Of a stretch of 64,000 bases of DNA, positions 793 to 35,267 are shown piece by piece. The stretch's first letter is position 1; each line of letters opens with the position of its first letter. Source of the DNA: Escherichia coli (GTDB taxonomy: Bacteria > Pseudomonadota > Gammaproteobacteria > Enterobacterales > Enterobacteriaceae); the NCBI RefSeq assembly GCF_003018115.1, contig NZ_CP027457.1; one strand, given 5' to 3'. A model generated the notes under the pieces. The model worked only from the letters and a program-made list of their open reading frames with translations, was not told the origin of the DNA and did no database searches. The position numbers and the translations under genes were made by a program.

Positions 793-1839
793 TTAATGCT
801 CTGTCGCCAATCTGTCGCCATTGTAGGTCAACGAAGGTTGAGCCTTCCCTTTGTTTGTTATAATTTCATCAAAGATAGCTGGATTATTATCTTTCAGTAA
901 TCTTGCTAGTATAATGATTTGCCCAGACGAGCCATCATCCTTGAATGAAAGGAAATTATCGGTAATATCAAGAATATCAATGGTAAATTTGAAGTAAGTT
1001 TCAATTGTATCGCCAAGCTCAATGCTGGACATGAAGTTAGTAACCATTTCATATCCATCAAAGTATAAAGTTGCATGTTCATTTAACTCCATTGGAGTTA
1101 GGCAAAGCATTCGATTAAGTTCGGATAAGTGTTTTTCTATTGAATGAAGAGATTGCATTTGACGGATTAAAACTTCGTCAAACTGAGAGCCATGATTAGA
1201 TGAATGTATCTTCTCTAGGTTTTTTAGTATATCAACCCAGTGATTATTCACTTCACGTATGTATTCTTTATCTGTATTTTTAGGCCGTCCCTTCTCTGGT
1301 GAGCTATTTATGAAAATATATCTATATAGATGTATTGGGTAGTTAATTTTATAACTTATCTCTTTAGTACCATAATGACGTTCGCGTTTAATGGTTTTGT
1401 TAGGTAAATTGGTGAAATAATCAGTAACGAACTTTAGATGGCTATAGTAGCTATCAGATAGATTCTTTTGCTTGGTTTCCTCAATTTGTCGGTTTGTTTG
1501 AACTGTGCGGTGTATGTTTGCTACGACAGCAACAAATGGTATGGACAAAGAAAGTAAGGCGATAGGAAGCTTGCTAATTGCAATGAAATTATTAAAGCCC
1601 TCACTATCAAATTGAGGGGAATGTCCAAGCCAGGAAAATATACCAAAGTATATCGCTGAAAATACAGGAATCCTAAGTGATTGTTTAAATAAGTATTGAC
1701 TTGTTAATGGCCTTTCATCCATGTTAAAGCCTTTTTTTGATACGCATAGATATAATTCAAGGCATATATATAAAAAATATATTATGATAAGTAAGTACGA
1801 TATCCATGGGTATTGTTGGATATAGTTATTAACAAACAC
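793..1839 (-). CDS. hypothetical membrane protein (about 3 N-terminal TM helices plus ~230-aa soluble domain); AT-rich cargo between int and attL
   Basis: 348-codon ORF with GTG start at 1837-1839 preceded by GGAG; hydrophobic segments WISYLLIIIYFLYICLELYL, IPVFSAIYFGIFSWLG, LPIALLSLSIPFVAVVANI; AT-rich relative to phage backbone; no recognisable catalytic motif. Confidence 0.55.
   Translation of the reverse strand: MFVNNYIQQYPWISYLLIIIYFLYICLELYLCVSKKGFNMDERPLTSQYLFKQSLRIPVFSAIYFGIFSWLGHSPQFDSEGFNNFIAISKLPIALLSLSIPFVAVVANIHRTVQTNRQIEETKQKNLSDSYYSHLKFVTDYFTNLPNKTIKRERHYGTKEISYKINYPIHLYRYIFINSSPEKGRPKNTDKEYIREVNNHWVDILKNLEKIHSSNHGSQFDEVLIRQMQSLHSIEKHLSELNRMLCLTPMELNEHATLYFDGYEMVTNFMSSIELGDTIETYFKFTIDILDITDNFLSFKDDGSSGQIIILARLLKDNNPAIFDEIITNKGKAQPSLTYNGDRLATEH
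801..821. repeat. tandem direct repeats CTGTCGCCA(A/T), candidate integrase arm-type (P') sites
   Basis: CTGTCGCCAAT CTGTCGCCAT about 95-115 bp from the core; same 10-mer occurs as an inverted pair at 34808..34846 near attR. Confidence 0.4.
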
Positions 1840-2868
1840 TTTCTAATTTTCTCCATCCAAGGTTAGCAAGAGGATTTTTGGTTACAGCATCTTCCAGATG
1901 GTCGGGAGCGAAGTGGGCGTAAATCATTGTCATTTTTATATCGACATGGCCCAGAATATCGCGCAGCACCAGTATGTTTCCGCCATTCATCATAAAGTGA
2001 CTTGCAAATGTATGTCGTAATACGTGTGTGCATTGCCCTTCTGGTAGCTCGATGCCAGCTCGTTTTACCGCACGTTCAAAAGCTTTCCTACAAGGTGTAA
2101 ATAATTTTCCCCTATTCTTAGGCAGTTCTTCATATAAATCCTTTGAAATAGGCACTGTTCGGTTTTTCTTTCCTTTAGTCTTGGTATAAGTGATACGGTA
2201 TTTTGACACCTGATGACTCTGCAGGTTTTCGGCTTCGCTCCAGCGTGCGCCGGTGGCCAAGCATATTTTTGCAATCATCAGCAGACTGGGGCTTTGAGAA
2301 TCAGCACAGGCATCCAGCAGACGTTTAATTTCTTCCGGGGTCAGGAACGCCAATTCACCCTCAGCAATTTTAAATGTTGGCAGCCCAGCAAGCGGGTTGG
2401 GGGCTGCCAGTGGCCCAGCTTTTTCAGTGTACCAAAAACAGATGATAGGTTGCGCTGTTCAAGATTTACCGTGCGGGGCTTAACGGGCGACATAAGCGTG
2501 CCATCTTCATTTCGTACTTCACCTTTTAACCGTGCTTCGCGGTATTTCGTAAACTCACCAGCTGTCAGTTCTGAGGCGATGGGATCGCCTAGACCATTAC
2601 AGATAATTCTAAGTTTCGCCATGAGGCGCTTGGGGTCTGCGAGTGTTTGACCATACAGGGAATACCACAGCTCAATTAATTCTGATAGATGTCGCCGATC
2701 TTCCTTTTCCCCTAGCCATGGTTTTTTGTTCACTTCTTCCATTGTGAAGCTTTCAAACGCAATGGCTTCGCCTTTGGTAGCAAATTGCTTACGCACGCGC
2801 TTACCATTGCGTCCATTGGGATAGCACTCACACAACCATTTTCCGTTCGGCTGTTTTCTGATGGTCAT
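1829..2868 (-). pseudogene. int: P2-family tyrosine integrase, interrupted by an apparent 1-nt frameshift in a G5 run (2399..2403)
   Basis: Two overlapping ORFs (2341..2868 N-terminal part, 1829..2353 catalytic part with ...HVLRHTFASHF...MIYAHF motifs); adding one G/C to the homopolymer gives a continuous ...HWQPPNPLAGLPTFKIAEGELAFLTPEEI... reading. Confidence 0.7.
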
Positions 2869-5219: not shown

Positions 5220-5446
5220 TGGCTGATGCAATGGATCTCGTACAGCAGCGCGTTGAAGAAGAACGCCAGCGCCATATCCGTGCTGCCCGTGCCAGAACGC
5301 CGGGCGTGTCACGCGTGCTTTGCATTGAATGTGAAGCGCCAATTCCGCCAGCAAGACGCCGCGCCATTCCGGGAGTGCAGCTTTGCATTACCTGCCAGGA
5401 AATAGCAGAGCTGAAAGGCAAACATTACAACGGAGGTGCTGTATGA
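5219..5446 (+). CDS. TraR/DksA-family C4 zinc-finger protein
   Basis: CxxC...CxxC pattern (CIECEAPIPPARRRAIPGVQLCITCQ); 75 aa; translationally coupled to neighbours. Confidence 0.7.
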   Translation: MADAMDLVQQRVEEERQRHIRAARARTPGVSRVLCIECEAPIPPARRRAIPGVQLCITCQEIAELKGKHYNGGAV

Positions 5447-6300
5447 GCACCATCCTGAAATGGGCGGGTAATAAAACCGCCGTTATGTCCGAACTGAAAA
5501 AATACCTTCCTGCTGGCCCGCGACTGGTTGAACCTTTCGCGGGTTCCTGTGCAGTGATGATGGAGACGGATTACCCAAGCTATCTGGTAGCGGATATTAA
5601 TCCTGATTTAATCAACCTCTATAAAAAGGTTGCTGCTGATTGTGAGGTGTTTATATCTCGCGCCAGAATTTTGTTTGAGGAAGCAAACAGTGAGCTGGCT
5701 TATTACAACATAAGGCAGGAGTTTAATTACTCAACTGAAATTACTGATTTCATGAAATCGGTATATTTCCTGTATCTCAATCGTCATGGTTACCGTGGGT
5801 TATGTCGCTATAACAAGAGCGGGCATTTCAACATTCCCTACGGTAATTATAAAAAACCGTATTTCCCTGAAAAAGAAATTCGCGCATTTGCAGAGAAAGC
5901 CCAGCGGGCAACGTTTATCTGCGCCAGCTTTGATGAAACGCTGGCGATGTTGAAGGCGGGGGATGTGGTGTATTGCGATCCGCCGTATGACGGTACGTTT
6001 TCCGGCTATCACACTGATGGCTTCACTGAGGATGACCAGTATCACCTGGCATCCGTTCTTGAACATCGATCATCTGAAGGTCATCCGGTCATTGTTTCTA
6101 ACAGTGACACATCCCTGATTCGTTCGCTGTATCGCAATTTCACTCACCACTACATCAAGGCAAAACGCAGCATCGGCGTGTCGGCTGGCGAGAGTAAATC
6201 TGCAACAGAAATCATTGCTGTTTCCGGGGCGCGCTGCTGGGTGGGATTTGATCCTTCGCGTGGCGTGGATAGTTCTGCTGTGTACGAGGTGCGTGTATGA
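5443..6300 (+). CDS. dam: DNA adenine methyltransferase (Dam-like, probable GATC N6-adenine MTase), orphan
   Basis: Motif [10 protein letters not shown] and motif IV DPPY; strong similarity pattern to E. coli Dam ([24 protein letters not shown]); ATG 5443 with GGAGGTG RBS. Confidence 0.85.
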
Positions 6301-10356: not shown

Positions 10357-12138
10357 ATGGCTGAACTATTACCGCAAACAACTTCTATACAAACTATTTA
10401 TTCATGGTTTACTGAAGGTAAGATATTTGTTAATAGACGTTATCAACGAAAATTAGTTTGGACTGCAATAGAGAAACAAAAATTAATTGAATCCATTCAA
10501 AAAAAATATCCAATTCCTGCAGTTCTTCTCGCGGAAAGGGAAAATGATCCTGGCACATATGAAATAATTGATGGCCTACAAAGATTACATGCAATAATGT
10601 CTTTCATCGAAACAGGATATGAATCACTTGATGGAAAACGTTTTAATCTGGACGCTTTTCCCACAGCGAAAAATCGAGCGGATGAAGGTAAGTTTGTTGC
10701 AGTGAAAGCTGATAATCTTTTAAGTCAGCGTGAGGTTACTCAGTTATTGGATTATTCTCTTGCAATGTCCATTATGCGTAATGCGACTGAGAACGAAATA
10801 AATGATGTTTTTGATAGAATTAATACATACGGGCATAGACTTAGTGATCAAGAAAGGCGCCAGGCTGGTATACAAAATAAATTTTCAAATATGGTTAGGG
10901 ATATTGCCTGTTCTATCAGGGGGGATGTATCTGACGACATATTGCTTTTAGAGCAAATGCCGTCTATTAGCATTGATTTGCCACTAACTAAACATGGTTA
11001 CCAAATTCAGTCGGAAGAAGTATTTTGGGTAAAACATGGGATCTTACGTTCAACAGACCTTCGTGACAGTATGGATGAGCAATGCATTGCAGATATAGCA
11101 GCTTGTATTGTTGGAGGTAAGTTAATAGATCGTTCCAAAGATGCGCTTGATCAGATTTATAATAATGAAGATGAAGAGTATAGTCGTATTAGCTCTGCTA
11201 TTAATGTTTATGGTGAAGGAAAATTTGCAGAAGAGTTTAAATTCTGCATCCAGGAAATAACAAAAGTATGTAATAGTGACGGTGAAATTAAACTCAGGGA
11301 TTTAATCTTTACTAAACGTACTACAAATGCTTTCCCAGCCATATTTGCTGTGTTATTTATTGCTTTTCATGAATTACTCATTAAAGAAAATAAGAAGATT
11401 AATAATTATAAAGGTGTAAAAGACAATCTTAATAATATAGTCACTCGACTAGATACTAAAAGATCTGCTACTGGTGGGGAAGAGAGAAGAAAGAATATTA
11501 ATTCTATCATAGGCTTGATTAAAGATAACTTTATTGATAGCGCCGATAGCAGTCATATCTATAATTCTCACAATACGGTGGATATTGAGGATATTTTACG
11601 AAGATCTGAAATAGAGCTTGCAAATTATGAACTGAAACAGGGTTTGTTGATGTTAGGCGGAGAGCGAACTATTGATGATGGCATTCATGAGAAAATATTC
11701 TCCACAATTTGTGCTATTGCTAACATCGGTAAAGGTAACAAGAACGGTGTAGTTGGTAAGTTATTGCTTGGTGTAACAGATAAACCAAGTGATACAAGTA
11801 GAGTAAAAGAGCTTGATGATATAGATGCACATGTAGTTGGTGAGAGAAGTGTTGTTGGTGTTAAAAGAGAAGCTATTAAACTCGGCATATCAATGGAAGA
11901 ATATTATAGACGTTTTTGCGATGAGTTGAAAAAATCTGCTTTGAGTGAGCCTCTTAAATCACAAGTGGTGAGTTTGATTGACTATAATGACTTTTATGGT
12001 TATGGAGTTATAGTTATTACAATTCCACTTCTAGCATCTTATTCTAGTTATGATGGGGATATTTATTATCGTGCTGGCGATAATACCGTAAAAGCAACAG
12101 TTATCGAAGCAGCAGATATTGCAACACGTTTTAAATGA
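10357..12138 (+). CDS. DUF262 (ParB/GmrS-like NTPase/nuclease-fold) N-domain fused to Schlafen/AlbA_2-like C-domain; candidate anti-phage defence protein
   Basis: 593 aa; N-terminal RRYQRKLVW and IIDGLQRLHA motifs (DUF262 signature); C-terminal ELANYELKQ...ICAIANIGKGNKNGVVGKLLLGVTD...IYYRAGDNT resembles AlbA_2/Schlafen core; no H-N-H/DUF1524 motif; AT-rich; between cos and portal gene. Confidence 0.7.
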   Translation: MAELLPQTTSIQTIYSWFTEGKIFVNRRYQRKLVWTAIEKQKLIESIQKKYPIPAVLLAERENDPGTYEIIDGLQRLHAIMSFIETGYESLDGKRFNLDAFPTAKNRADEGKFVAVKADNLLSQREVTQLLDYSLAMSIMRNATENEINDVFDRINTYGHRLSDQERRQAGIQNKFSNMVRDIACSIRGDVSDDILLLEQMPSISIDLPLTKHGYQIQSEEVFWVKHGILRSTDLRDSMDEQCIADIAACIVGGKLIDRSKDALDQIYNNEDEEYSRISSAINVYGEGKFAEEFKFCIQEITKVCNSDGEIKLRDLIFTKRTTNAFPAIFAVLFIAFHELLIKENKKINNYKGVKDNLNNIVTRLDTKRSATGGEERRKNINSIIGLIKDNFIDSADSSHIYNSHNTVDIEDILRRSEIELANYELKQGLLMLGGERTIDDGIHEKIFSTICAIANIGKGNKNGVVGKLLLGVTDKPSDTSRVKELDDIDAHVVGERSVVGVKREAIKLGISMEEYYRRFCDELKKSALSEPLKSQVVSLIDYNDFYGYGVIVITIPLLASYSSYDGDIYYRAGDNTVKATVIEAADIATRFK

Positions 12139-22818: not shown

Positions 22819-23416
22819 TCTGCTGCCACCGGGTTCAACTTCACTGGAGCGCCGACTGGCGCAAACCTGTAGCGGGATTTCTGATCTGCAGGTGCCGCTG
22901 CGTGACTTGTGGAATCCGGCTACCTGTCCGGTCAGCTTCCTGCCTTATCTCGCCTGGGCGTTCTCTGTGGATCGCTGGGACGAGGGCTGGACAGAAAGCG
23001 TCAAACGCCAGGTAGTGAAGGATGCTTTTTATATTCATCAGCATAAAGGAACCACCAGTGCCGTGCGGCGGGTGGTGGAACCGTTCGGATTCCTGATCCG
23101 CATTATTGAGTGGTGGCAGACCGGAGAGGCTCCGGGCACGTTTCGCCTGGATATCGGCGTGCAGGACCAGGGCATCACTGAAGATACCTATCTGGAACTT
23201 GAGCGACTGATAAGCGATGCCAAACCATGTAGCCGCCACATGATCGGCATGTCCATCAATCTGCAGACCAGCGGCCCGCATTGGGTGGGAGCCGCCAGCT
23301 ATCTTGGCGAAGAAATCACGATCTATCCGTATATCAACGAAACAATTATTTCCGGTGGCACCGCGCATGAAGGCGGGGCGGTCCATGTTATTGACACAAT
23401 GAGAGTGAATCCATGA
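22811..23416 (+). CDS. I: baseplate protein (P2 gpI-like)
   Basis: 201 aa; GGAGG RBS. Confidence 0.75.
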   Translation: MNSLLPPGSTSLERRLAQTCSGISDLQVPLRDLWNPATCPVSFLPYLAWAFSVDRWDEGWTESVKRQVVKDAFYIHQHKGTTSAVRRVVEPFGFLIRIIEWWQTGEAPGTFRLDIGVQDQGITEDTYLELERLISDAKPCSRHMIGMSINLQTSGPHWVGAASYLGEEITIYPYINETIISGGTAHEGGAVHVIDTMRVNP

Positions 23417-24835
23417 GCACAAAATTTTATACCCTGCTGACGGATATTGGCGCGGCGAAACTTGCCAGCGCCGCCGCGCTCGGTGTGCCGCTAAAAATTA
23501 CCCATATGGCGGTGGGCGATGGCGGCGGAGCATTGCCGACGCCGGACGCAAAGCAGACGGCACTGGTAAATGAGAAACGCCGGGCTGCGCTGAATATGCT
23601 CTATATCGACCCGCAGAACAGCAGCCAGATTATTGCTGAACAGGTGATCCCTGAAAATGAGGGTGGTTGGTGGATACGTGAAGTGGGTCTGTTTGATGAG
23701 TCCGGGGCATTGATTGCCGTAGGCAACTGCCCGGAAAGCTATAAGCCGCAACTGGCTGAAGGCAGCGGGCGCACCCAGACCGTGCGCATGGTGCTGATTA
23801 CCAGCAGCACGGACAATATCACCCTGAAAATCGACCCTGCCGTCGTGCTGGCAACCCGCAAGTATGTGGATGACAAGGTACTGGAGCTGAAGGTGTTCGT
23901 GGATGATAAGATGGCAAAACATCTTGCCGCACCGGACCCGCATTCACAGTATGCACCCAAAGAAAGCCCGACATTGACCGGAACACCCAAAGCGCCAACG
24001 CCAGCGGAGGGGAATAACACCACGCAGATTGCGACCACCGCGTTTGTTCAGGCCGCTATTACTGCTCTGATTAACGGTGCGCCAGCCACGCTGGACACAC
24101 TGAAAGAAATTGCCGCAGCCATTAACAATGACCCGAAATTCAGTACCACCATTAACAATGCGCTGGCACTAAAAGCACCGCTGTCGAGTCCGGCACTCAC
24201 CGGAACGCCAACAGCACCTACTGCGGCACAGTCGGTCAACAATACACAGATTGCCACTACAGCTTTTGTGAAATCAGCGATTGCGGCAATGGTGGGTTCT
24301 GCACCTGCTGCACTGGATACACTGAACGAACTGGCGGCGGCGCTGGGGAATGACCCGAACTTTGCCACGACAATGTTGAATGCGCTGTCAGGCAAACAAC
24401 CGCTGGACAATACGCTGACTAATTTGAGTGGAAAGGATGTTGCTGGTCTTCTCGCATACCTTGGTTTGGGAGAAGCGGCAAAACGGGATGTGGGGACAGG
24501 GGAAAATCAGATACCGGACATGGCCTCTTTTGCCAGTGGTGATGGATGGATGAAATTACCCAACGGGAAAATCCTGCAATATGGTCGTGGTGCGGTTACG
24601 CCGACATTATCGACGCAAAACAATGAGAATTACATTCAGCATTCCTTTCCCCAAAAAAGCGGACTGCGCCATGCTTACTCATTCTGGTGATGGCGGTGCG
24701 CCTTTAGGCGCTGGGCGAGGGTTCGTGATGACTGCAGAAGGCCCAACGTTAACCGGCTTTAATTCTGCTTACAGAACGTCATCAACCAGCGACACGGTAT
24801 CGATGAATTACAGTTGGTGGGCTGTTGGTGAGTAA
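23413..24835 (+). CDS. H: tail fibre protein (P2 gpH-like); variable C-terminal part lies inside the invertible segment; apparent +1 frameshift at C4A6 run 24649..24658
   Basis: Collagen-like repeats (TGTPKAPT.., TGTPTAPT..); frame from 23413 stops at 24690 while an overlapping frame (24581..24835) runs open to just before tfa; removing one A from A6 joins them. Confidence 0.7.
24449..24474. repeat. invertase crossover site (left), TTCTCGCATACC-TT-GGTTTGGGAGAA
   Basis: 26-bp imperfect dyad inside H at the GLGE codons; right half is the exact reverse complement of the left half of the site at 26358..26383. Confidence 0.6.
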
Positions 24836-24855
24836 TTTTATTCAGGGTGATTTAT

Positions 24856-25299
24856 ATGAACGAATATGTTTATAGCGCAAGGCATAATGCTTTTTTCCCT
24901 GTGGATATGATTGATAAATATAAATCAGAGGGATGGGATTTATCAGACGCTAAGGAAGTAAATCAAAATATTATCAGTGAGTTTATGGCTGAACCGCCAC
25001 AAGGAAAAATCCGTATTGCCGGAGATGATGGGCTGCCTGCGTGGGCAGATATTCCTCCACCCACGCATGAAGAGCTTATTGAAATTACTGAATCAGAAAG
25101 ACAGCTACTAATTAACCAGGCCAACGAATACATGAACAGTAAGCAATGGCCCGGTAAAGCCGCTATTGGTCGTCTGAAAGGTGAGGAACTGGCGCAATAT
25201 AATTTGTGGCTGGATTATCTGGACGCACTGGAGCTGATCGATACTTCCGGTGCGCCAGATATTGAATGGCCTACGCCTCCGGCAGTTCAGGCCAGATGA
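24856..25299 (+). CDS. tail fibre assembly protein (Tfa, gpG/U-like)
   Basis: Follows the fibre gene in current orientation. Confidence 0.75.
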   Translation: MNEYVYSARHNAFFPVDMIDKYKSEGWDLSDAKEVNQNIISEFMAEPPQGKIRIAGDDGLPAWADIPPPTHEELIEITESERQLLINQANEYMNSKQWPGKAAIGRLKGEELAQYNLWLDYLDALELIDTSGAPDIEWPTPPAVQAR

Positions 25300-25873
25300 C
25301 ATCCGGCGCTGTGCTGGTATCTGTTGCCGTCACCGCGTCAATGTAATCCAGCACAGCGTTAAGGCGGGTTGTTTCTGCCTGCGTCAGCTTCCGTCCGGCC
25401 TGTAATTTCAGTTGAATCAGACTGATGGAGGCCATTGCAGTATCAATCAGCGACTGGCGCTGTGCTTCTGCTGCATCTACTGCTGCGCCGTGCTGTGCCT
25501 TGGTATCTGTCACCCATTTCTCACCATTCCATTCATCGTATGGCGTTAACGGGGCGATAGTGGTTGTATTTTCAGGATAATCACCCGGAGCTGTGATTTC
25601 TTTCGATTCTCCTGTTTCGATGCTATAGACGATTTCACCGCGATGATCTGGCACATATTCCCATGAATTTAAATTCACAGAACGACAGATTGCATAACCA
25701 ACCTTATGTATGCCTGGTGCATCAAGACAGGAACATGCCGGAATACCGACACCAACAGCAAGATATTCAGTTGACGTGGAAATATATTCCCGTGTTTCAC
25801 CATCGTAGTTATAAACGGTAACATCCCCTGCCTTTGTTGCAATAAGGTCACTATTTAATATTGCTTTATGCAT
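25271..25873 (-). CDS. alternative tail fibre assembly protein (Tfa')
   Basis: 200 aa on opposite strand within invertible segment; C-terminal ...DTSTAPDVIWPELPEA parallels Tfa ...DTSGAPDIEWPTPPA. Confidence 0.75.
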   Translation of the reverse strand: MHKAILNSDLIATKAGDVTVYNYDGETREYISTSTEYLAVGVGIPACSCLDAPGIHKVGYAICRSVNLNSWEYVPDHRGEIVYSIETGESKEITAPGDYPENTTTIAPLTPYDEWNGEKWVTDTKAQHGAAVDAAEAQRQSLIDTAMASISLIQLKLQAGRKLTQAETTRLNAVLDYIDAVTATDTSTAPDVIWPELPEA

Positions 25874-26370
25874 CAGGCTGCCCTCACGATATAATTAAAT
25901 GCAATATTACGCGGACGCGTTTCTGAGGCTGCGGCACCTAAACCAGCCACTGATTGTTTATATGTTTTAAAGGTTCCATAATCCGGTGCTGGTAATCCGG
26001 CATCGTTTGTGTTTCCTCTTTTGATAATGTCAGTGCCACTATTTACCCAGCTTTCATCAAAATAGAAATTAATAGTTGCATCAGTCACAATCGTGGATCT
26101 TGACGGTAATCCATGAGCATGATCCTCCGTTGCATATCCCTGAATACTTAAAATAGAGCGACCTGTATCAATCCCCGCCCGTCATCCCAGCCACGAATAA
26201 ACTCACCACGTAAATCAGGCAATTTATTTGTCGGGTAAACTTTTGCCAGTTCCGGGTATTCTTCAGCAGAAAAAGCTGCACCATTGCATTTCAGCCAGCC
26301 TGTAGGCGGAGTGGCTGAAGGCCACGGAACAGGGACACCAACAGGTAATGCAGAGCCTTCTCCCAAACCA
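25873..26370 (-). other. alternative tail-fibre variable C-terminal segment (H'), promoterless, with apparent frameshift at C4 run 26173..26176
   Basis: Minus-strand reading from the crossover site: ...GLGEGSALPVGVPVPWPSATPPTGWLKCNGAAFSAEEYPELAKVYPTNKLPDLRGEFIRGWDDGRG, then frame shifts to ...DTGRSILSIQGYATEDHAHGLPSRSTIVTDATINFYFDE... Confidence 0.6.
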
Positions 26371-26383
26371 ACGTTTATGAAAA
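26358..26383. repeat. invertase crossover site (right), TTCTCCCAAACC-AA-CGTTTATGAAAA
   Basis: Inverted relative to left site; core dinucleotide AA vs TT. Confidence 0.6.
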
Positions 26384-26438
26384 TGCAGAGATAATGGCTA
26401 ACTGGCATCATCCCCGGTTTTTATTCAGGGGATTGATC

Positions 26439-27005
26439 ATGCTTATTGGCTATGTACGCGTGTCAACAAATGACCAGAACACCGATTTGCAACGTAATGC
26501 ACTGAACTGCGCGGGATGTGAGCGGATTTTTGAGGACAAAATCAGTGGCACTAAGTCCGACAGACCGGGGCTTAAAAAACTGCTCAGGACACTATCGGCA
26601 GGTGACACACTGGTTGTCTGGAAGCTGGACAGGTTGGGGCGCAGTATGCAGCATCTTGTTACGCTGATAGAAGAGTTGCGCCAGCGTGGCGTGAATTTCC
26701 GAAGCCTGACTGACAGTATTGATACCAGTACCCCAATGGGCCGTTTCTTTTTTCATGTCATGGGTGCCCTGGCTGAAATGGAACGCGAACTGATAGTTGA
26801 ACGTACCAGGGCAGGGCTGGCTGCAGCTCGTGCCAAAGGCAGAGTAGGTGGGCGTCGTCCTAAGTTGACCACCGAACAGTGGGCACAGATTGGACGTTTA
26901 CTCGAGGCCGGAGAATCAAGACAGCGTATTGCACTGATTTTTGATGTGGGCGTTTCTACCATTTATAGAAAATTTCCGGTGAATGAGAGCAATGAATCGC
27001 CCTGA
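26439..27005 (+). CDS. serine DNA invertase (Gin/Hin/Cin/Pin family)
   Basis: MLIGYVRVSTNDQNTDLQRNAL (catalytic Ser in VRVST) and C-terminal HTH; 188 aa. Confidence 0.9.
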   Translation: MLIGYVRVSTNDQNTDLQRNALNCAGCERIFEDKISGTKSDRPGLKKLLRTLSAGDTLVVWKLDRLGRSMQHLVTLIEELRQRGVNFRSLTDSIDTSTPMGRFFFHVMGALAEMERELIVERTRAGLAAARAKGRVGGRRPKLTTEQWAQIGRLLEAGESRQRIALIFDVGVSTIYRKFPVNESNESP

Positions 27006-27147: not shown

Positions 27148-28320
27148 ATGGCTCAGGATTACCACCACGGGGTGCGCGTTGTTGAAGTCAACGAAGGCAC
27201 CCGATCTATTACCACGGTGAGCACCGCCATCGTGGGTATGGTCTGCACGGGCGATGATGCCGATGCAAAAATGTTTCCTCTTAATAAACCCGTGCTGATC
27301 ACTGATGTGCTGACTGCCAGCGGTAAAGCGGGTGAGTCAGGTACTCTGGCCCGTTCGCTGGATGCCATCGCTGACCAGGCAAAACCCGTGACCATTGTTG
27401 TGCGTGTGCCGCAGGGTGAAACGGAAGACGAAACCACGACCAATATCATCGGCGCAGTGACTGCTGAAGGTAAAAAAACAGGTATGAAAGCCCTGTTATC
27501 TGCCCAGTCACAGCTCGGCGTTAAACCGCGCATTCTCGGCGTGCCAGGCCACGACACCAAGGCGGTAGCTACTGAGTTGCTGAGCGTGGCGCAAAGCCTG
27601 CGTGGATTTGCTTACCTGTCAGCGTATGGCTGCAAGACAGTGCAGGAGGCGATCACTTACCGCGAAAACTTCAGCCAGCGCGAAGGGATGCTGATCTGGC
27701 CTGACTTTACTGGTTGGGACACGGTGCTGAATGCCGAAGCAACGGCATATGCCGCCGCCCGTGCGCTTGGTCTGCGCGCCAAAATTGACGAGCAGACCGG
27801 ATGGCACAAAAGCCTGTCCAACGTGGGCGTGAACGGTGTCACCGGAATTTCTGCAGATGTGTTCTGGGATCTGCAGGACCCGGCAACCGATGCAGGTCTG
27901 CTGAACCAGAACGACGTCACCACGCTTGTGCGTAAAGACGGTTTCCGCTTCTGGGGTTCCCGCTGCCTGAGTGATGACCCGCTCTTTGCCTTCGAAAACT
28001 ACACCCGCACGGCGCAGGTGCTGATGGACACGATGGCAGAAGCACACATGTGGGCGGTGGATAAACCGCTTAACCCGTCGCTGGCCCGCGACATTATCGA
28101 AGGTATCCGCGCCAAAATGCGCAGCCTGGTCAGTCAGGGCTATCTCATTGGTGGTGATTGCTGGCTGGATGAGTCGGTGAACGACAAAGACACGCTGAAA
28201 GCCGGAAAACTCACCATCGACTACGACTACACGCCAGTGCCGCCACTTGAAAACCTGATGCTGCGTCAGCGCATCACCGATCAGTACCTGGTGAATTTCG
28301 CCAGCCAGGTCAGCGCGTAA
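27148..28320 (+). CDS. FI: tail sheath protein (P2 gpFI-like)
   Basis: 390 aa; strong RBS AGGAGG; synteny. Confidence 0.85.
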
Positions 28321-28329
28321 GGGGACAAC

Positions 28330-28845
28330 ATGGCATTACCACGCAAATTAAAACACCTGAACCTGTTTAACGACGGGAACAACTGGCAGGGGATCGTTGA
28401 GTCGCTGACGCTGCCGAAATTTACCCGCAAATATGAGAAGTATCGCGGCGGCGGAATGCCGGGTGCGGTGGATGTGGATCTGGGGCTTGATGACAGTGCG
28501 CTGGACACAGAATTTTCCATTGGTGGTACTGAATTGCTGCTGTTTAAACAGATGGGTAAAGCCACGGTGGATGGCATCCAGCTGCGCTTTACCGGCTCTA
28601 TTCAGCGTGACGATACCGGGGAAGTGCAGGCCGTGGAGCTTGTCGTGCGTGGACGTCACAAAGAAGTGGATTCCGGCGAGTGGAAGACGGGCGAAAGCAA
28701 CACCACCAAAGTGACCAGTACCAACAGCTACGCGAAGCTGACCATCAATGGTGAGGTGCTCTATGAAGTGGACCTTATCAACATGGTGGAAATTGTGGAC
28801 GGTGTGGACCTGATGGAAGCGCACCGCAACGCCCTCGGCCTCTGA
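28330..28845 (+). CDS. FII: tail tube protein (P2 gpFII-like)
   Basis: 171 aa; synteny. Confidence 0.85.
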   Translation: MALPRKLKHLNLFNDGNNWQGIVESLTLPKFTRKYEKYRGGGMPGAVDVDLGLDDSALDTEFSIGGTELLLFKQMGKATVDGIQLRFTGSIQRDDTGEVQAVELVVRGRHKEVDSGEWKTGESNTTKVTSTNSYAKLTINGEVLYEVDLINMVEIVDGVDLMEAHRNALGL

Positions 28846-28899
28846 TATATCTGAACGGCGCGGGATACCGCGCCAGAACCCAATTGACAGGACAGCAAA

Positions 28900-29202
28900 A
28901 TGAGCGATAAGCAGACTGAAAAGACCATTCAACTGGATACCCCCATCAAGCGCGGTAAAACAGAAATCACCGAAATTGTGCTGCGTAAACCGCAGTCCGG
29001 TGCGCTGCGCGGTACACGCCTGCAGGCCATTATGGATATGGATGTAAACGCGATGATGACCGTGATCCCCCGCATCTCCAGCCCGGCGCTGACTGCACAG
29101 GAAATTGCAGAGATGGACCCGGCAGATCTCACTGCCATGTCGGTTGAGGTTGTCACTTTTTTGTTGAAGAAGTCGGTGCTTGCCGGTTTACCGACAGCCT
29201 GA
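28900..29202 (+). CDS. E: tail assembly chaperone (P2 gpE-like)
   Basis: 100 aa, precedes tape measure gene. Confidence 0.75.
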   Translation: MSDKQTEKTIQLDTPIKRGKTEITEIVLRKPQSGALRGTRLQAIMDMDVNAMMTVIPRISSPALTAQEIAEMDPADLTAMSVEVVTFLLKKSVLAGLPTA

Positions 29203-29336
29203 CGGTTGACGATCTGGTGGCAGATATCGCCACCATTTTTCACTGGCCGCCATCCGTTACTGACGTTATGCCGCTGACCGAAGTGCTGGAATGGCGGTAT
29301 AAAGCGATTCAGAGAAGCGGGGCCAACGATGAGTGA
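29157..29336 (+). other. programmed -1 translational frameshift: slippery heptamer TTTTTTG (29157..29163) and E' extension ending at TGA 29334..29336
   Basis: T6G slip site near end of E; -1 frame is open for 59 codons and ends as T begins (G/GT-like tail chaperone arrangement). Confidence 0.65.
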
Positions 29337-32300
29337 TAACAACCTGCGTCTGCAGGTCATTCTTAATGCGGTTGACAAGCTCACCCGCCCATTTCGATCT
29401 GCGCAGGCCAGTTCAAGAGAACTGGCTGCTGCTGTCAAAAAATCCCGCGATGCAATAAAGCAGCTTGATCAGGCCGGGAGCAGTCTGGACAGCTTCCGAA
29501 AGCTGCAGGCAGAAAATCAGAAATTAGGCGACAGGCTGAACTATGCCCGCCAGCGTGCAAATTTGCTCAGTCAGGAACTGGGAGCGATGGGGCCGCCTTC
29601 GCAACGTAAGGTTGTTGCTCTGGGCCGTCAACGGCTGGCTGTTCAGCGCCTGGAAGAACGCCAGAAAAAGCTGCAGCAGCAGACGGCGCTTGTGCGTGCT
29701 GAACTGTACCGGGCGGGAATTTCTGCGAAAGACGATGCGGGAGCAACTGCCCGTTTAGCCCGTGAAACATCACGTTATAACCAGGAACTTTCGAAACAGG
29801 AGGCGCGGCTGAAGCGACTGGGGGAAGCTCAGCGCAGGATGAATGCAGCGCGTGCCAGTTATGCCCGTTCGCTGGAGGTGCGTGATCGTATTGCAGGTGC
29901 CGGAGCCACCACCACGGCTGCAGGGCTGGCAATGGGTGCGCCAGTGATGGCGGCAGTAAAAAGCTATACCAGCATGGAAGATGCCATGAAAGGTGTGGCA
30001 AAGCAGGTCAATGGTCTGCGTGACGATAATGGCAACCGCACTGCACGTTTTTATGAAATGCAGGATGCCATCAAGGCTGCCAGCGAACAGTTGCCGATGG
30101 AAAACGGTGCGGTGGACTTCGCTGCACTGGTTGAAGGTGGTGCGCGCATGAACGTCGCAAATCCTGACGACAGCTGGGAAGATCAGAAACGTGACCTGCT
30201 GGCCTTCGCCAGTACGACAGCAAAGGCGGCAACAGCCTTTGAGCTGCCAGCGGATGAACTGTCAGAAAGTCTGGGGAAAATCGCCCAGCTCTACAAAATC
30301 CCCACCCGCAATATTGAACAGCTCGGTGATGCGCTGAACTATCTGGATGATAACGCCATGTCGAAAGGGGCAGACATCATTGATGTGATGCAACGTCTGG
30401 GCGGTGTGGCTGACCGTCTGGATTATCGTAAAGCGGCGGCGCTGGGTTCCACCTTCCTGACACTGGGCGCTGCGCCAGAGGTTGCAGCCAGTGCAGCAAA
30501 CGCGATGGTGCGTGAATTGTCCATTGCCACCATGCAAAGCAAGAGTTTCTTTGAAGGGATGAATCTGCTGAAACTCAATCCTGAAGTGATTGAAAAGCAG
30601 ATGACGAAGGATGCGATGGGAACCATCCAGCGCGTGCTGGAGAAGGTAAACGCGCTGCCGCAGGACAAGCGCCTGTCTGCCATGACTATGTTGTTTGGTA
30701 AAGAGTTTGGCGATGACGCGGCGAAACTGGCAAACAACCTGCCGGAACTGCAGCGTCAGTTAAAATTGACAGCGGGCAATGATGCGCTTGGCTCCATGCA
30801 GAAAGAATCCGACATTAACAAGGATTCACTTTCTGCGCAGTGGTTGCTGGTCAAAACCGGAGCGCAGAACACCTTCAGCAGCCTGGGCGAAACGCTGCGC
30901 CAGCCGCTGATGGATATTCTGTACACGGTGAAAAGCGTCACGGGGGCGTTGCGTCGCTGGGTGGAAGCTAACCCGGAACTGACAGGCACACTGATGAAAG
31001 CATCGGCTGTTGTGGCTGCGGTTACCGTCGGCCTCGGCACCTTAGCGGTGGCGCTGGCTGCAGTGCTGGGGCCGCTGGCAGTGATCCGTCTGGGATTCTC
31101 TGTGTTGGGTATCAAAACGTTATCTTCCGTTACGGCAGCAGTAACTCGAACCAGCAGCGCGTTGTCCTGGCTGGCTGGCGCACCACTGGCACTGCTGCGA
31201 CGCGGGCTTGCTTCATCGGGCAACGCCGCAGGTTTACTTACTGCGCCGTTGTCGTCTTTGCGCCGCACGGCATCACTGACGGGAAATGTCCTGAAAACTG
31301 TAGCAGGTGCGCCGGTTGCACTTTTGCGGTCTGGATTATCCGGTTTACGTGCGGTTGCTGTGATGTTTATGAATCCACTGGCAGCACTACGCGGCGGGCT
31401 GGCTGCCGCAGGCACGGTGCTGCGAGTACTGGCATCTGGTCCGCTGGCGATGCTGCGCGTTGCCCTGTATGCCGTATCTGGTCTGTTAGGTGCTCTGCTC
31501 AGTCCGATAGGTCTTGTGGTTACTGCACTGGCGGGTGTGGCACTGGTTGTCTGGAAATACTGGCAACCCATCACCGCATTTCTCGGTGGCGTGGTGGAAG
31601 GATTCAAAGCGGCGGCAGGTCCCATCAGTGCAGCGTTCGAACCGCTTAAGCCTGTGTTCCAGTGGATTGGTGACAAAGTGCAGGCGCTGTGGGGCTGGTT
31701 TACTGATCTGCTGACGCCCGTTAAGTCGACTTCTGCCGAACTGCAGAGCGCAGCGGCAATGGGGCGACGATTCGGGGAGGCACTGGCGGAAGGGCTGAAT
31801 ATGGTTATGCATCCGCTGGACTCCCTGAAATCTGGCGTTTCCTGGTTGCTGGATAAACTCGGCATTGTCAGTAAAGAGGCTGCAAAGGCGAAACTGCCGG
31901 AAAGCGTGACGCGTCAGCAACCTGCGACGGTGAATGCAGACGGTAAAGTGATGATGCCATCGGGTGGTTTTCCGTCATGGGGATATGGCTTTGCGGGGAT
32001 GTATGACAGCGGCGGCTATATCCCGCGCGGGCAGTTTGGCATCGTCGGTGAAAACGGGCCGGAAATTGTTAACGGCCCGGCAAATGTGACCAGCCGGAGA
32101 AATACAGCTGCACTGGCTGCCGTTGTTGCCGGAATGATGGGCGTTGCTGCCGCGCCTGCAGAGCTTCCACCGTTGCACCCTTTGGCACTTCCCGCGAAAG
32201 GCGGCGAAGCGATGGTGAGTCGTGCAGCCACTGTGCCGCCCGTTCAACGGATTGAGGCACCGATGCAGATCATCATTCAGACGCAGCCAGGACAAAGTGC

Positions 32301-32406
32301 GCAGGATATTGCGCGGGAGGTGGCCCGCCAGCTTGATGAACGTGAACGCAGGCTGAAGGCAAAAGCCAGGAGTAACTACAGCGATCAGGGGGGATACGAC
32401 GCATGA
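29329..32406 (+). CDS. T: tail tape measure protein (P2 gpT-like)
   Basis: 1025 aa, Ala/Leu-rich repeats, C-terminal region. Confidence 0.85.
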   Translation: MSDNNLRLQVILNAVDKLTRPFRSAQASSRELAAAVKKSRDAIKQLDQAGSSLDSFRKLQAENQKLGDRLNYARQRANLLSQELGAMGPPSQRKVVALGRQRLAVQRLEERQKKLQQQTALVRAELYRAGISAKDDAGATARLARETSRYNQELSKQEARLKRLGEAQRRMNAARASYARSLEVRDRIAGAGATTTAAGLAMGAPVMAAVKSYTSMEDAMKGVAKQVNGLRDDNGNRTARFYEMQDAIKAASEQLPMENGAVDFAALVEGGARMNVANPDDSWEDQKRDLLAFASTTAKAATAFELPADELSESLGKIAQLYKIPTRNIEQLGDALNYLDDNAMSKGADIIDVMQRLGGVADRLDYRKAAALGSTFLTLGAAPEVAASAANAMVRELSIATMQSKSFFEGMNLLKLNPEVIEKQMTKDAMGTIQRVLEKVNALPQDKRLSAMTMLFGKEFGDDAAKLANNLPELQRQLKLTAGNDALGSMQKESDINKDSLSAQWLLVKTGAQNTFSSLGETLRQPLMDILYTVKSVTGALRRWVEANPELTGTLMKASAVVAAVTVGLGTLAVALAAVLGPLAVIRLGFSVLGIKTLSSVTAAVTRTSSALSWLAGAPLALLRRGLASSGNAAGLLTAPLSSLRRTASLTGNVLKTVAGAPVALLRSGLSGLRAVAVMFMNPLAALRGGLAAAGTVLRVLASGPLAMLRVALYAVSGLLGALLSPIGLVVTALAGVALVVWKYWQPITAFLGGVVEGFKAAAGPISAAFEPLKPVFQWIGDKVQALWGWFTDLLTPVKSTSAELQSAAAMGRRFGEALAEGLNMVMHPLDSLKSGVSWLLDKLGIVSKEAAKAKLPESVTRQQPATVNADGKVMMPSGGFPSWGYGFAGMYDSGGYIPRGQFGIVGENGPEIVNGPANVTSRRNTAALAAVVAGMMGVAAAPAELPPLHPLALPAKGGEAMVSRAATVPPVQRIEAPMQIIIQTQPGQSAQDIAREVARQLDERERRLKAKARSNYSDQGGYDA

Positions 32407-32888
32407 TGATGGTGCTGGGATTGTACGTGTTTATGCTGCGCACCGTGCCGTATCAGGAGCTGCAGTATCAACGCAGCTGGCGACATGCGGCAAACAGCCG
32501 GGTAAACCGACGTCCGTCCACGCAGTTTCTGGGACCGGACAACGACATGCTGACGCTTTCCGGTGTTCTTATGCCGGAGATAACAGGCGGCAGGCTGTCG
32601 TTGCTGGCACTGGAGCAGATGGCAGAACAGGGGAAAGCATGGCCCCTGATTGAAGGCAGCGGCACGATTTACGGCATGTATGTGATTGAGGGACTGAATC
32701 AGACTAAAACGGAGTTTTTCCGCGACGGTATGCCGCGCCGGATTGAGTTCACCCTGTCGCTCAAACGAGTGGATGAATCCCTGTCCGATATGTTCGGTGA
32801 TCTCAGTGCGCAACTGAATAATCTGCAGGACACGGCAACGTCTGCCTTAAGCGATATCAGTAAAACGGTGGGAGGGCTGCTGTCGTGA
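32403..32888 (+). CDS. U: tail protein (P2 gpU-like)
   Basis: 161 aa; synteny. Confidence 0.8.
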   Translation: MMMVLGLYVFMLRTVPYQELQYQRSWRHAANSRVNRRPSTQFLGPDNDMLTLSGVLMPEITGGRLSLLALEQMAEQGKAWPLIEGSGTIYGMYVIEGLNQTKTEFFRDGMPRRIEFTLSLKRVDESLSDMFGDLSAQLNNLQDTATSALSDISKTVGGLLS

Positions 32889-33985
32889 ATTTCAGCTCTG
32901 AACTGCTTAACAAAGGCAACAAAACTCCCGCATTCAGCATCAGCATTGAGGGCAGGGATATCACCACTGTGCTGGATAACCGCCTGATGAGTTTGACGCT
33001 GACGGATAACCGGGGCTTTGAAGCGGACCAGCTTGATCTGGAGTTGGATGACGCTGACGGAAAAATCGTGCTGCCGCGCCGTGGTGCGGTCATTACGCTG
33101 GCGCTGGGCTGGAAGGGGCAGCCGCTTTTCCCGAAAGGGGCATTCACAGTGGACGAGATTGAACACACTGGCGCACCGGACCGCCTGACTATCCGGGCGC
33201 GAAGTGCTGATTTTCGGGAAACGCTGAATACCCGCCGTGAAAAATCGTGGCATAAGACCACCGTCGGGGAAGTGGTGAAGGAAATAGCCGCGCGGCACAA
33301 GCTGAAGATGGCACTGGGTAAAGACCTGTCGGATAAACCCGTGGAGCATATAGACCAGACTAATGAGAGTGACGGCAGTTTTCTGATGCGGCTGGCGCGA
33401 CAGTACGGTGCCATCGCGTCGGTGAAAAATGGCAATCTGTTATTCATCCGGCAGGGGCAGGGCAAAAGCGCCACTGGTAAACCTCTGCCAGTGATCACTA
33501 TCACACGCAAGGACGGCGACAGTCACCGATTTACCCTGGCAGATCGCGGAGCCTACACGGGCGTAATTGCCAGCTGGTTACATACCCGCGAACCTGCGAA
33601 GAAAGAAAGCACCACGGTGAAGCGTAAGCGCAGAACTAAGAAGCAGAAGAAAGAGCCAGAAGCGAAGCAGGGCGATTACCTGGTGGGTACGGATGAAAAC
33701 GTGCTGGTACTTAATCGCACTTATGCCAACCGGAGCAACGCCGAACGAGCGGCGAAAATGCAGTGGGAACGCCTGCAACGCGGCGTTGCGTCATTTTCGC
33801 TACAACTGGCAGAAGGGCGGGCAGATCTCTACACGGAAATGCCTGTGAAGGTCAGCGGTTTTAAACAGCCGATAGATAATGCGGAATGGACCATTACGAC
33901 TCTGACACATACCGTCAGCCCGGATAACGGTTTTACAACCAGTATTGAACTCGAAGTGAAGATTGATGATCTTGAAATGGAATAA
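32885..33985 (+). CDS. D: tail protein / late gene D (P2 gpD-like)
   Basis: 366 aa; synteny; GTG start. Confidence 0.8.
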   Translation: MNFSSELLNKGNKTPAFSISIEGRDITTVLDNRLMSLTLTDNRGFEADQLDLELDDADGKIVLPRRGAVITLALGWKGQPLFPKGAFTVDEIEHTGAPDRLTIRARSADFRETLNTRREKSWHKTTVGEVVKEIAARHKLKMALGKDLSDKPVEHIDQTNESDGSFLMRLARQYGAIASVKNGNLLFIRQGQGKSATGKPLPVITITRKDGDSHRFTLADRGAYTGVIASWLHTREPAKKESTTVKRKRRTKKQKKEPEAKQGDYLVGTDENVLVLNRTYANRSNAERAAKMQWERLQRGVASFSLQLAEGRADLYTEMPVKVSGFKQPIDNAEWTITTLTHTVSPDNGFTTSIELEVKIDDLEME

Positions 33986-34279: not shown

Positions 34280-34300
34280 AACCTGCTACGGCAGGTTTTT
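34280..34300. terminator. bidirectional Rho-independent terminator
   Basis: AACCTGC-tacg-GCAGGTT followed by TTTT; serves ogr (+) and the convergent WYL-BRCT gene (-). Confidence 0.65.
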
Positions 34301-34781
34301 ATTCATCTGGGATCTCACCCGTTTCAAGAAAATGTATAAAGCCAGGCTCATCTATGATGATTGTGCCTTTCATCCTGGCTGCCGATACTTTTGATGGGCC
34401 TGCATTGTAACCGCAACAGAGCATCTGAAGGCTTTGGGTTACAGAGGTTCTTACCGTTAATCCTTGTTCATTCGCCTTATCAACCAATCTTTCTTTATCT
34501 GCTTTCTTAAATCCGGTGAAACACACATCGAATGTATTTTTTTTCGGACCAGACTGCTTAGTGAGATGTGAGTAGCTTTCGGGGAGGAATGACGCGCATT
34601 CCTGAATGGCTTGTTCTGGTGAATCGTACTGTTTAAGAATGCGGTCTTTTCGGAAGGTTTTTATTCGATCGGTGTTCTTACAAATGCCCTGTATATGATT
34701 TTCGCTATAACTGATGCTCTGTATAGAGTGAACACCGATACGACCATTTGCATTGATGTAAACAAAGTGAAGTTCTTCCAT
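34299..34781 (-). CDS. small WYL-domain plus BRCT-domain protein, cargo between ogr and attR
   Basis: 160 aa; N-terminal FVYINANGRIGVHSI...GICKNTDRIKTFRKDRI (WYL-like, ends in the FRxDRI signature); C-terminal DVCFTGFKKADKERLVDKANEQGLTVRTSVTQSLQMLCCGYNAGPSKVSAARMKGTIIIDEPGF (BRCT-like); RBS AGAGG before ATG at 34779-34781. Confidence 0.6.
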   Translation of the reverse strand: MEELHFVYINANGRIGVHSIQSISYSENHIQGICKNTDRIKTFRKDRILKQYDSPEQAIQECASFLPESYSHLTKQSGPKKNTFDVCFTGFKKADKERLVDKANEQGLTVRTSVTQSLQMLCCGYNAGPSKVSAARMKGTIIIDEPGFIHFLETGEIPDE

Positions 34782-34904: not shown

Positions 34905-35267
34905 TGGTGGAGCTGGCGGGAGTTGAACCCGCGTCCGAAATTCCTACATCCTCGGTACTACATGCTTAGTCAGTCTTTACATTCGCTTGCCAGCTGCGGA
35001 CGGACACGCCACTAACAAACTAGCCTGATTAAGTTTTAACGCTTCAACCCCTGGCAGGGCTTCCACGCGATCTCTTTTGGGTTTGACCTCTCTTGATCCC
35101 CGTCCTAAGAGCGGAGGCTAGGGAGAGAGGGCTCTAAGCAGGTTATTAAGCTGCTAAAGCGTAGTTTTCGTCGTTTGCGACTATTTTTTGCGGCTTTTTA
35201 CGAGGCCAACCGCCCCTCGGCATGCACCTTGGGTTTCGCAAATCCCGTCGAATCCAGAATCAGCCCC
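34905..35267 (-). ncRNA. ssrA: tmRNA (SsrA), complete; 3' 45 nt form attR
   Basis: Reverse complement matches the E. coli tmRNA from GGGGCTGATTCTGGATTCGACGGG to ...GGTTCAACTCCCGCCAGCTCCACCA, including the tag-encoding region. Confidence 0.95.

Follow-up and report, generated by a model that had tools for sequence, protein, structure and literature searches.

A predicted P2-type programmed -1 frameshift between the tail genes E and E' of an Escherichia coli prophage

Frameshifting of the kind described here is already known, and the P2 E/E+E' family to which it belongs has been characterised experimentally. In the account of Lynch et al. (2010, PMC3091744), which draws on the experiments of Christie et al. 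2002 and Xu et al. 2004, a -1 shift at TTTTTTG in P2 gives a 91-aa E protein and a 142-aa E+E' protein from a single start, and the same account describes the region 3' of the slip site as having no hairpin. The event is described as translational both there and by Atkins et al. (2016, PMC5009743), each citing Christie et al. 2002. For P2 the literature has both E and E+E' made in vivo and required for the assembly of tails. Atkins et al. put the frameshift efficiency of P2 and its relatives 2-3 fold above that of lambda, and summarise the lambda G/GT mechanism worked out by Levin 1993 and by Xu, Hendrix and Duda 2004, 2013 and 2014. The P2 genome record itself (NC_001895) annotates E, a joined CDS for E+E' ('-1 frameshift; essential tail protein') and a 'site of -1 translational frameshift'.

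We examined the corresponding locus in a prophage of E. coli, contained in a stretch of 64,000 nucleotides that we call the window. The features of the tail region, by position in the window, are as follows.

27148..28320, + strand: FI, tail sheath, first gene of the FI-FII-E-T-U-D block (PF04984, PF17482, PF22671)
28330..28845, + strand: FII, tail tube, directly upstream of E (PF04985 Phage_tube, E=8.8e-60)
28900..29202, + strand: gene E, short 0-frame tail assembly chaperone (ORF of 100 aa; PF10109)
29146..29150, + strand: SD-like GAGGT, candidate 5' stimulator (anti-SD complementarity)
29157..29163, + strand: slippery heptamer T_TTT_TTG (computed phase; identity with P2; conservation in relatives)
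29163..29336, + strand: E', -1 frame extension, predicted to be read only after a slip (open frame; PF06528)
join(28900..29163, 29163..29336), + strand: predicted E+E' fusion, 145 aa (conceptual join; tblastn; AlphaFold2 model)
29329..32406, + strand: T, tail tape measure, 1025 aa (PF10145; TIGR01760 tape_meas_TP901, E=2.6e-92)
32403-32888: U (Pfam/NCBIfam)
32885-33985: D (Pfam/NCBIfam)

When the Pfam and NCBIfam assignments are set against the P2 gene map, the order FI-FII-E-T-U-D is that of the late tail genes (F operon) of P2, and E/E' has the tail tube gene FII on one side and the tape measure gene T on the other, as it does in P2. By ORF analysis gene E runs from an ATG at 28900 to a TGA at 29200-29202. 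An earlier note on this DNA, made from the sequence alone, had pointed to a run of six T and a G near the end of E; TTTTTTG is indeed found at 29157-29163, and the E stop comes 14 codons downstream of it. In the E frame the heptamer falls as (AC)T TTT TTG. Tandem -1 slippage of the P-site and A-site tRNAs requires this X_XXY_YYZ phase, and the codons concerned are UUU (Phe87) for the P site and UUG (Leu88) for the A site. No stop interrupts the -1 frame from 29148 until a TGA at 29334-29336, and this gives the 59 codons of the earlier note if the count is begun at 29157. The two frames overlap for 55 nt (29148-29202), with the heptamer inside the overlap and in phase. Counted from GTT at 29163, E' has 57 sense codons before its TGA, and E and E+E' have their first 88 residues in common. 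The earlier note also had E' ending exactly at the start of the tape measure gene. The two do adjoin, but the boundary is not exact, for E' runs on past the T start codon (ATG, 29329-29331), giving an overlap of 8 nt (ATGAGTGA).

In the -1 frame there is a TGA at 29145-29147, three codons upstream of the heptamer, and in P2 there is a TAA three codons upstream. This upstream stop is probably not a functional feature, since the open -1 frame of GC-rich relatives extends much farther in the upstream direction.

The likeness to P2 extends to most of the layout. P2 DNA reads GG-T TTT TTG, in a phase identical to that of the prophage heptamer, and the direction of the shift, the position between FII and T and both Pfam domains are shared. 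In P2 as well the E' stop and the T start overlap by 8 nt (ATGAGTAA), and the product sizes are similar, with 91 and 142 aa in P2 and 100 and 145 aa in the prophage. The two loci differ in that the fusion proteins are only about 49% identical (tblastn), and in that E continues for 12 residues after the A-site Leu in the prophage and for 6 in P2. The nearest relatives of the locus are in the Elveevirus, Wadgaonvirus and Felsduovirus groups of the Peduoviridae, not in Peduovirus. Lambda is further removed, as sequence homology to lambda G/T is not detectable, the prophage E belongs to another Pfam family (PF10109), the lambda heptamer is G_GGA_AAG where that of the prophage is T_TTT_TTG, and lambda has a siphovirus tail whereas the tail here is contractile. 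Judged by its sequence, the prophage site is a homologue of the P2 E/E+E' frameshift and belongs within the lambda G/GT class.

The protein families are consistent with this assignment. E matches PF10109 (Phage_TAC_7) over residues 9-88 with E=1e-18 and 67.5 bits against a cut-off of 25 bits, and the same domain is found at residues 9-88 when the E+E' fusion is searched (E=2e-18). E also matches PHROG 103, 'tail protein' (E=2e-42), and its homologue in E. coli E6 carries the PGAP name 'phage tail assembly protein'. The E' part matches PF06528 (Phage_P2_GpE) at residues 107-143 of the fusion, with E=2.9e-18 and all 37 profile positions covered; the name of this family is misleading, because the profile models only E' and not E. 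No NCBIfam model was found to match E+E'. An AlphaFold2 model of the fusion, built on a 14-sequence alignment, has a mean pLDDT of 89.5 and a pTM of 0.80, and in this model a helix spanning residues 74-92 is continuous across the junction of residues 88 and 89.

A short overlapping frame behind a slippery heptamer could also be a coincidence, or could be what is left when a frameshift mutation or a sequencing error splits a single gene. The bare pattern does not by itself speak strongly against this. TTTTTTG occurs 13 times per strand in the window, in-phase heptamers of the form XXXYYYZ occur at 0.0027 per codon in the window genes, and at 4.4% of in-gene positions the -1 frame runs on without a stop for 59 codons or more, so that about 0.2 gene ends of this kind are expected by chance per 67 genes. 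A looser scan returned 14 look-alikes, which were mostly spurious ORFs lying over real genes. The same prophage also carries a frameshift in its integrase, a defect or an assembly error. What places the E/E' site beyond chance is its homology together with its conservation, the pattern alone being insufficient.

In a tblastn search with the fusion, 425 phage records were matched, P2 included, 388 of them at a coverage of at least 80%, and all of the near-full-length matches listed consist of two pieces in two frames. We compared in detail a diverse set of 14 phage loci from the Peduoviridae and beyond, made up of ten from enteric, Burkholderia, Ralstonia, Pseudomonas and Acidovorax phages (P2 included) and four others. 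The E' frame is -1 relative to E in every one of the 14. T_TTT_TTG is present in phase in ten, and at the equivalent place the other four have C_CCT_TTC (Klebsiella Reipivirus), G_GGA_AAG (Mannheimia), T_TTT_TTC (Vibrio MAR) and T_TTT_TTT (Zymomonas). A second, closer set comprised 80 IMG/VR loci, 59-97% identical and representing 69 distinct sequences. Loss of the slip site among these close relatives was looked for and did not come to light: a slippery heptamer is present in 80 of 80, as T6G in 76 and as T6A (T_TTT_TTA) in 4, with both frames intact. E and E' fused in one frame were not found in any relative examined, whether among the 14 diverse or the 80 IMG/VR loci.

The positions at which these sequences vary follow the change of frame, with codon-position variability shifting by -1 after the E stop. 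Before the overlap it is the third position of the E frame that is most variable (88% of sites). Beyond the E stop it is E-frame position 2 that varies, equivalent to E' position 3 (84%), and the most constrained is E-frame position 1, equivalent to E' position 2 (23%). This pattern of substitution indicates that both frames are under purifying selection, each in its own phase. In the protein alignment the -1 frame product is conserved from the slip site on, as VxE[VL]GA...L[ST]VDDL, E' has the conserved motif ADIAxIFHWPP...WR..A..RSG, and across the 14 diverse phages D109, E128, W132, R133, A136 and R139 of E' are invariant. The universal two-frame layout excludes a split pseudogene, and with selection acting on each frame in its own phase and no single-frame relative seen, we regard the probability of a coincidence, a mutation or a sequencing error as negligible.

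The E' reading frame could alternatively be an independent gene of 39 aa, a 'GpE family phage tail protein' translated from GTG 29217 with no frameshift. PGAP and several phage records do give the E' ORF as a separate CDS, and PF06528 begins at the residue encoded by this GTG. Against this, the -1 frame offers no start-type codon other than GTG 29217 from the heptamer up to the conserved motif, inspection by eye shows no SD in the 18 nt upstream of this codon (CTGACGGTTGACGATCTG), and 4 of the 14 lineages have Ala, Trp or Ile where it aligns, so that the start is not conserved. Conservation of the -1 frame protein, on the other hand, does not begin at the GTG but reaches back upstream of it to the heptamer, and PHROG 1756 aligns over the junction, spanning residues 85-145 of the fusion. 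An independent E' gene would have no need of the in-phase heptamer that all of the IMG/VR loci keep, and in the P2 record it is the joined product that is annotated. With no visible SD, an unconserved start, and both the upstream protein and the heptamer conserved, a separate E' gene is very improbable.

We consider it very probable that the locus makes E and E+E' from one start by a programmed -1 ribosomal frameshift, as the homology and the conserved layout suggest. Most ribosomes would stop at 29202 and yield the 100-aa E. A minority would pause with tRNA-Phe on UUU (29158-60) and tRNA-Leu on UUG (29161-63), both tRNAs would move back by one base and re-pair with UUU UUU, and decoding would restart in the -1 frame at GUU 29163 and proceed to the TGA at 29334-36, giving the 145-aa E+E'. 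The junction product expected of such a tandem slip is ...VVTF-L-VEEVGAC.... By analogy with lambda G/GT, a possible role for the shared E domain could be to bind the tape measure T and for the E' domain to recruit the tube protein, in which case a fixed slip rate would set the ratio of E to E+E' for tail assembly. On the same analogy neither protein would be part of the virion. We infer production of E+E' by the prophage from its homology to the P2 system in which the experiments were done; likewise the ribosomal nature of the slip, its efficiency and the chaperone roles are carried over from the P2 and lambda literature. The earlier note had read the locus as a chaperone frameshift of the G/GT type, and this reading is borne out by the synteny with FII and T, both Pfam domains, the P2 annotation and the retention of the slip site throughout the IMG/VR set.

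The slip might instead take place during transcription, with RNA polymerase adding one U on the T6 run. The six T of the slip site form a homopolymer, and one added base would produce the same change of frame and nearly the same protein. In E. coli reporters the heptamer UUUUUUG is also an inherently poor site of ribosomal slippage, giving 0.118% alone and 0.77% with the IS3 pseudoknot, according to the supplement of Sharma et al. (2014, PMC4066793); these rates are far below the several percent implied for P2. An RNA element that might raise the rate was looked for downstream and not found. Neither in the window nor in P2 did the 42-100 nt after the heptamer fold into a significant structure (z -0.06 to -1.33), and an Rfam scan of 28800-29500 at E<=1 found no element. 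Efficient transcriptional slippage in bacteria, however, usually involves runs longer than six, which counts against the polymerase here. Homologues with the non-homopolymeric heptamers C_CCT_TTC and G_GGA_AAG fit tandem tRNA slippage and not polymerase stuttering, and the strict conservation of the X_XXY_YYZ phase is something that polymerase slippage would not need. In the literature, moreover, the P2 event is termed translational (PMC3091744, PMC5009743). Transcriptional slippage is disfavoured by the non-homopolymeric heptamers of the homologues and by the strictly kept phase, and there is only a very slight chance that it is the source of the long form.

With ribosomal slippage as the preferred reading, the E. 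coli dnaX site (A_AAA_AAG) offers a further comparison. It too is a site of -1 tandem slippage with an SD-like sequence upstream, for which the prophage has GAGGT; the spacer from GAGG to the heptamer is 7 nt (6 from GAGGT). The two sites differ in that dnaX is followed by a strong hairpin, of which no counterpart was detected in the prophage, and in that frameshifting makes the dnaX product shorter but E+E' longer. In 13 of 14 lineages with T6G or T6A, the best anti-SD 9-mer of the whole of E falls in the 20 nt before the heptamer (rank 1 of about 250), whereas it lies elsewhere in the four lineages that use other heptamers. The Glu codon within the SD-like element is GAG in 70 of 70 distinct close relatives, and elsewhere in E 83% of Glu codons are GAA, a bias that amounts to a single column in related sequences. 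When six upstream codons were recoded synonymously, 4-58% of the recoded sequences were as strong as the one observed, which is not significant, and a Fisher combination of this test over 8 clades gave p of about 0.13. These controls did not separate the SD-like lead from amino-acid conservation, because the conserved peptide [EKQ]-V-[VI] is encoded at the same place. It is conceivable but unlikely that the P2-type site depends on an unrecognised 5' stimulator, either GAGGT/AGGTG in the RNA or the nascent peptide EVV(T/G)F. If it did, the GAGGT element or the EVV(T/G)F peptide would constitute a new class of stimulator for phage chaperone frameshifts.

The host DNA flanking the prophage is that of E. 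coli at 99.9% identity (ffh-tyrA-aroF region). The ssrA gene and the integrase ORFs are placed as follows.

34905-35267, - strand: ssrA (tmRNA, tag ANDENYALAA), outside the prophage next to its D/ogr end; smpB lies further out
2868..2341, - strand: ORF with the Int_N domain, part of the split integrase
2353..1829, - strand: ORF with the integrase catalytic domain, the other part of the split integrase

The position of ssrA fits integration of the prophage at this gene. Between the tail genes and ssrA there is a 160-aa ORF (34299-34781, - strand) that matches nothing in Pfam. Compared with the intact 346-aa integrase of a 99.5% identical prophage in E. coli CFSAN051542, one T is missing near 2407 (CACTGG[T]CAGCC), and the integrase break is, on this comparison, a plain frameshift defect or an assembly error. 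T_TTA_AAA at 2374, which is in phase in the split integrase, was considered as a recoding site and rejected, the break being a 1-nt deletion 33 nt away. Because the integrase is broken, the prophage may be unable to excise and is possibly cryptic. The tail genes examined, from FI to D, are all uninterrupted ORFs. The statement in the earlier note that not every frame discontinuity of this prophage is a defect holds, in that the conserved E/E' break stands against an integrase split by a simple deletion of one nucleotide.

The prophage also carries a CI-type repressor, CII, a Dam methylase, the gpA replication protein and a GmrSD-like gene. Its cargo (coordinates 5383-6300 and 10357-12138) includes a D12-class N6-adenine methyltransferase, encoded directly before the gpA gene, and a 593-aa protein with a GmrSD_N domain, encoded between gpA and the portal/terminase genes and likely the product of an anti-phage restriction gene. 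The tail-fibre region (23413-27005) contains a Gin/Hin-type invertase (26394-27005; Resolvase and HTH_7 domains) together with opposed fibre and fibre-assembly ORFs at 24847-25299 (+), 25271-25873 (-), 25873-26088 (-) and 26148-26411 (-), and resembles an invertible host-range segment. The H ORF, of 425 aa, ends at 24690, and the next ORF begins 157 nt further on.

A second in-phase heptamer, G_GGG_GGA, is found at 32388-32394, 5 codons before the T stop (32404-32406), with the -1 frame there being that of U, so that T and U would be fused by a slip. Two close relatives, one of them NC_049342.1, have the identical heptamer, and it is absent in P2. We considered it as a recoding site and take it to be probably a coincidence, as U has an ATG of its own (32403, in an ATGA overlap) and P2 manages without the heptamer. 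The record NC_049342.1 ('Escherichia phage 500465-1') is a predicted prophage region, 99.6% identical to the window at E/E'. It includes about 9 kb of host genes (smpB, ratA, bamE, recN, nadK, grpE, ffh) and has split portal, terminase and grpE genes, and for these reasons it is a poor reference.

The 8-kb tail block was matched in 2,897 of 5,426 complete E. coli genomes, and a site this common teaches nothing new about recoding. Its importance is mainly for annotation. Automated annotation usually makes E' a free-standing 39-aa gene (29217-29336) with an internal GTG start, and E' stands as a free-standing CDS in five homologous records. The correct gene model would be E (28900..29202) together with a joined CDS for E+E', join(28900..29163, 29163..29336), in place of the stand-alone 39-aa gene. 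Telling a functional frame break such as E/E' from a true defect helps in turn to judge whether a prophage is intact.
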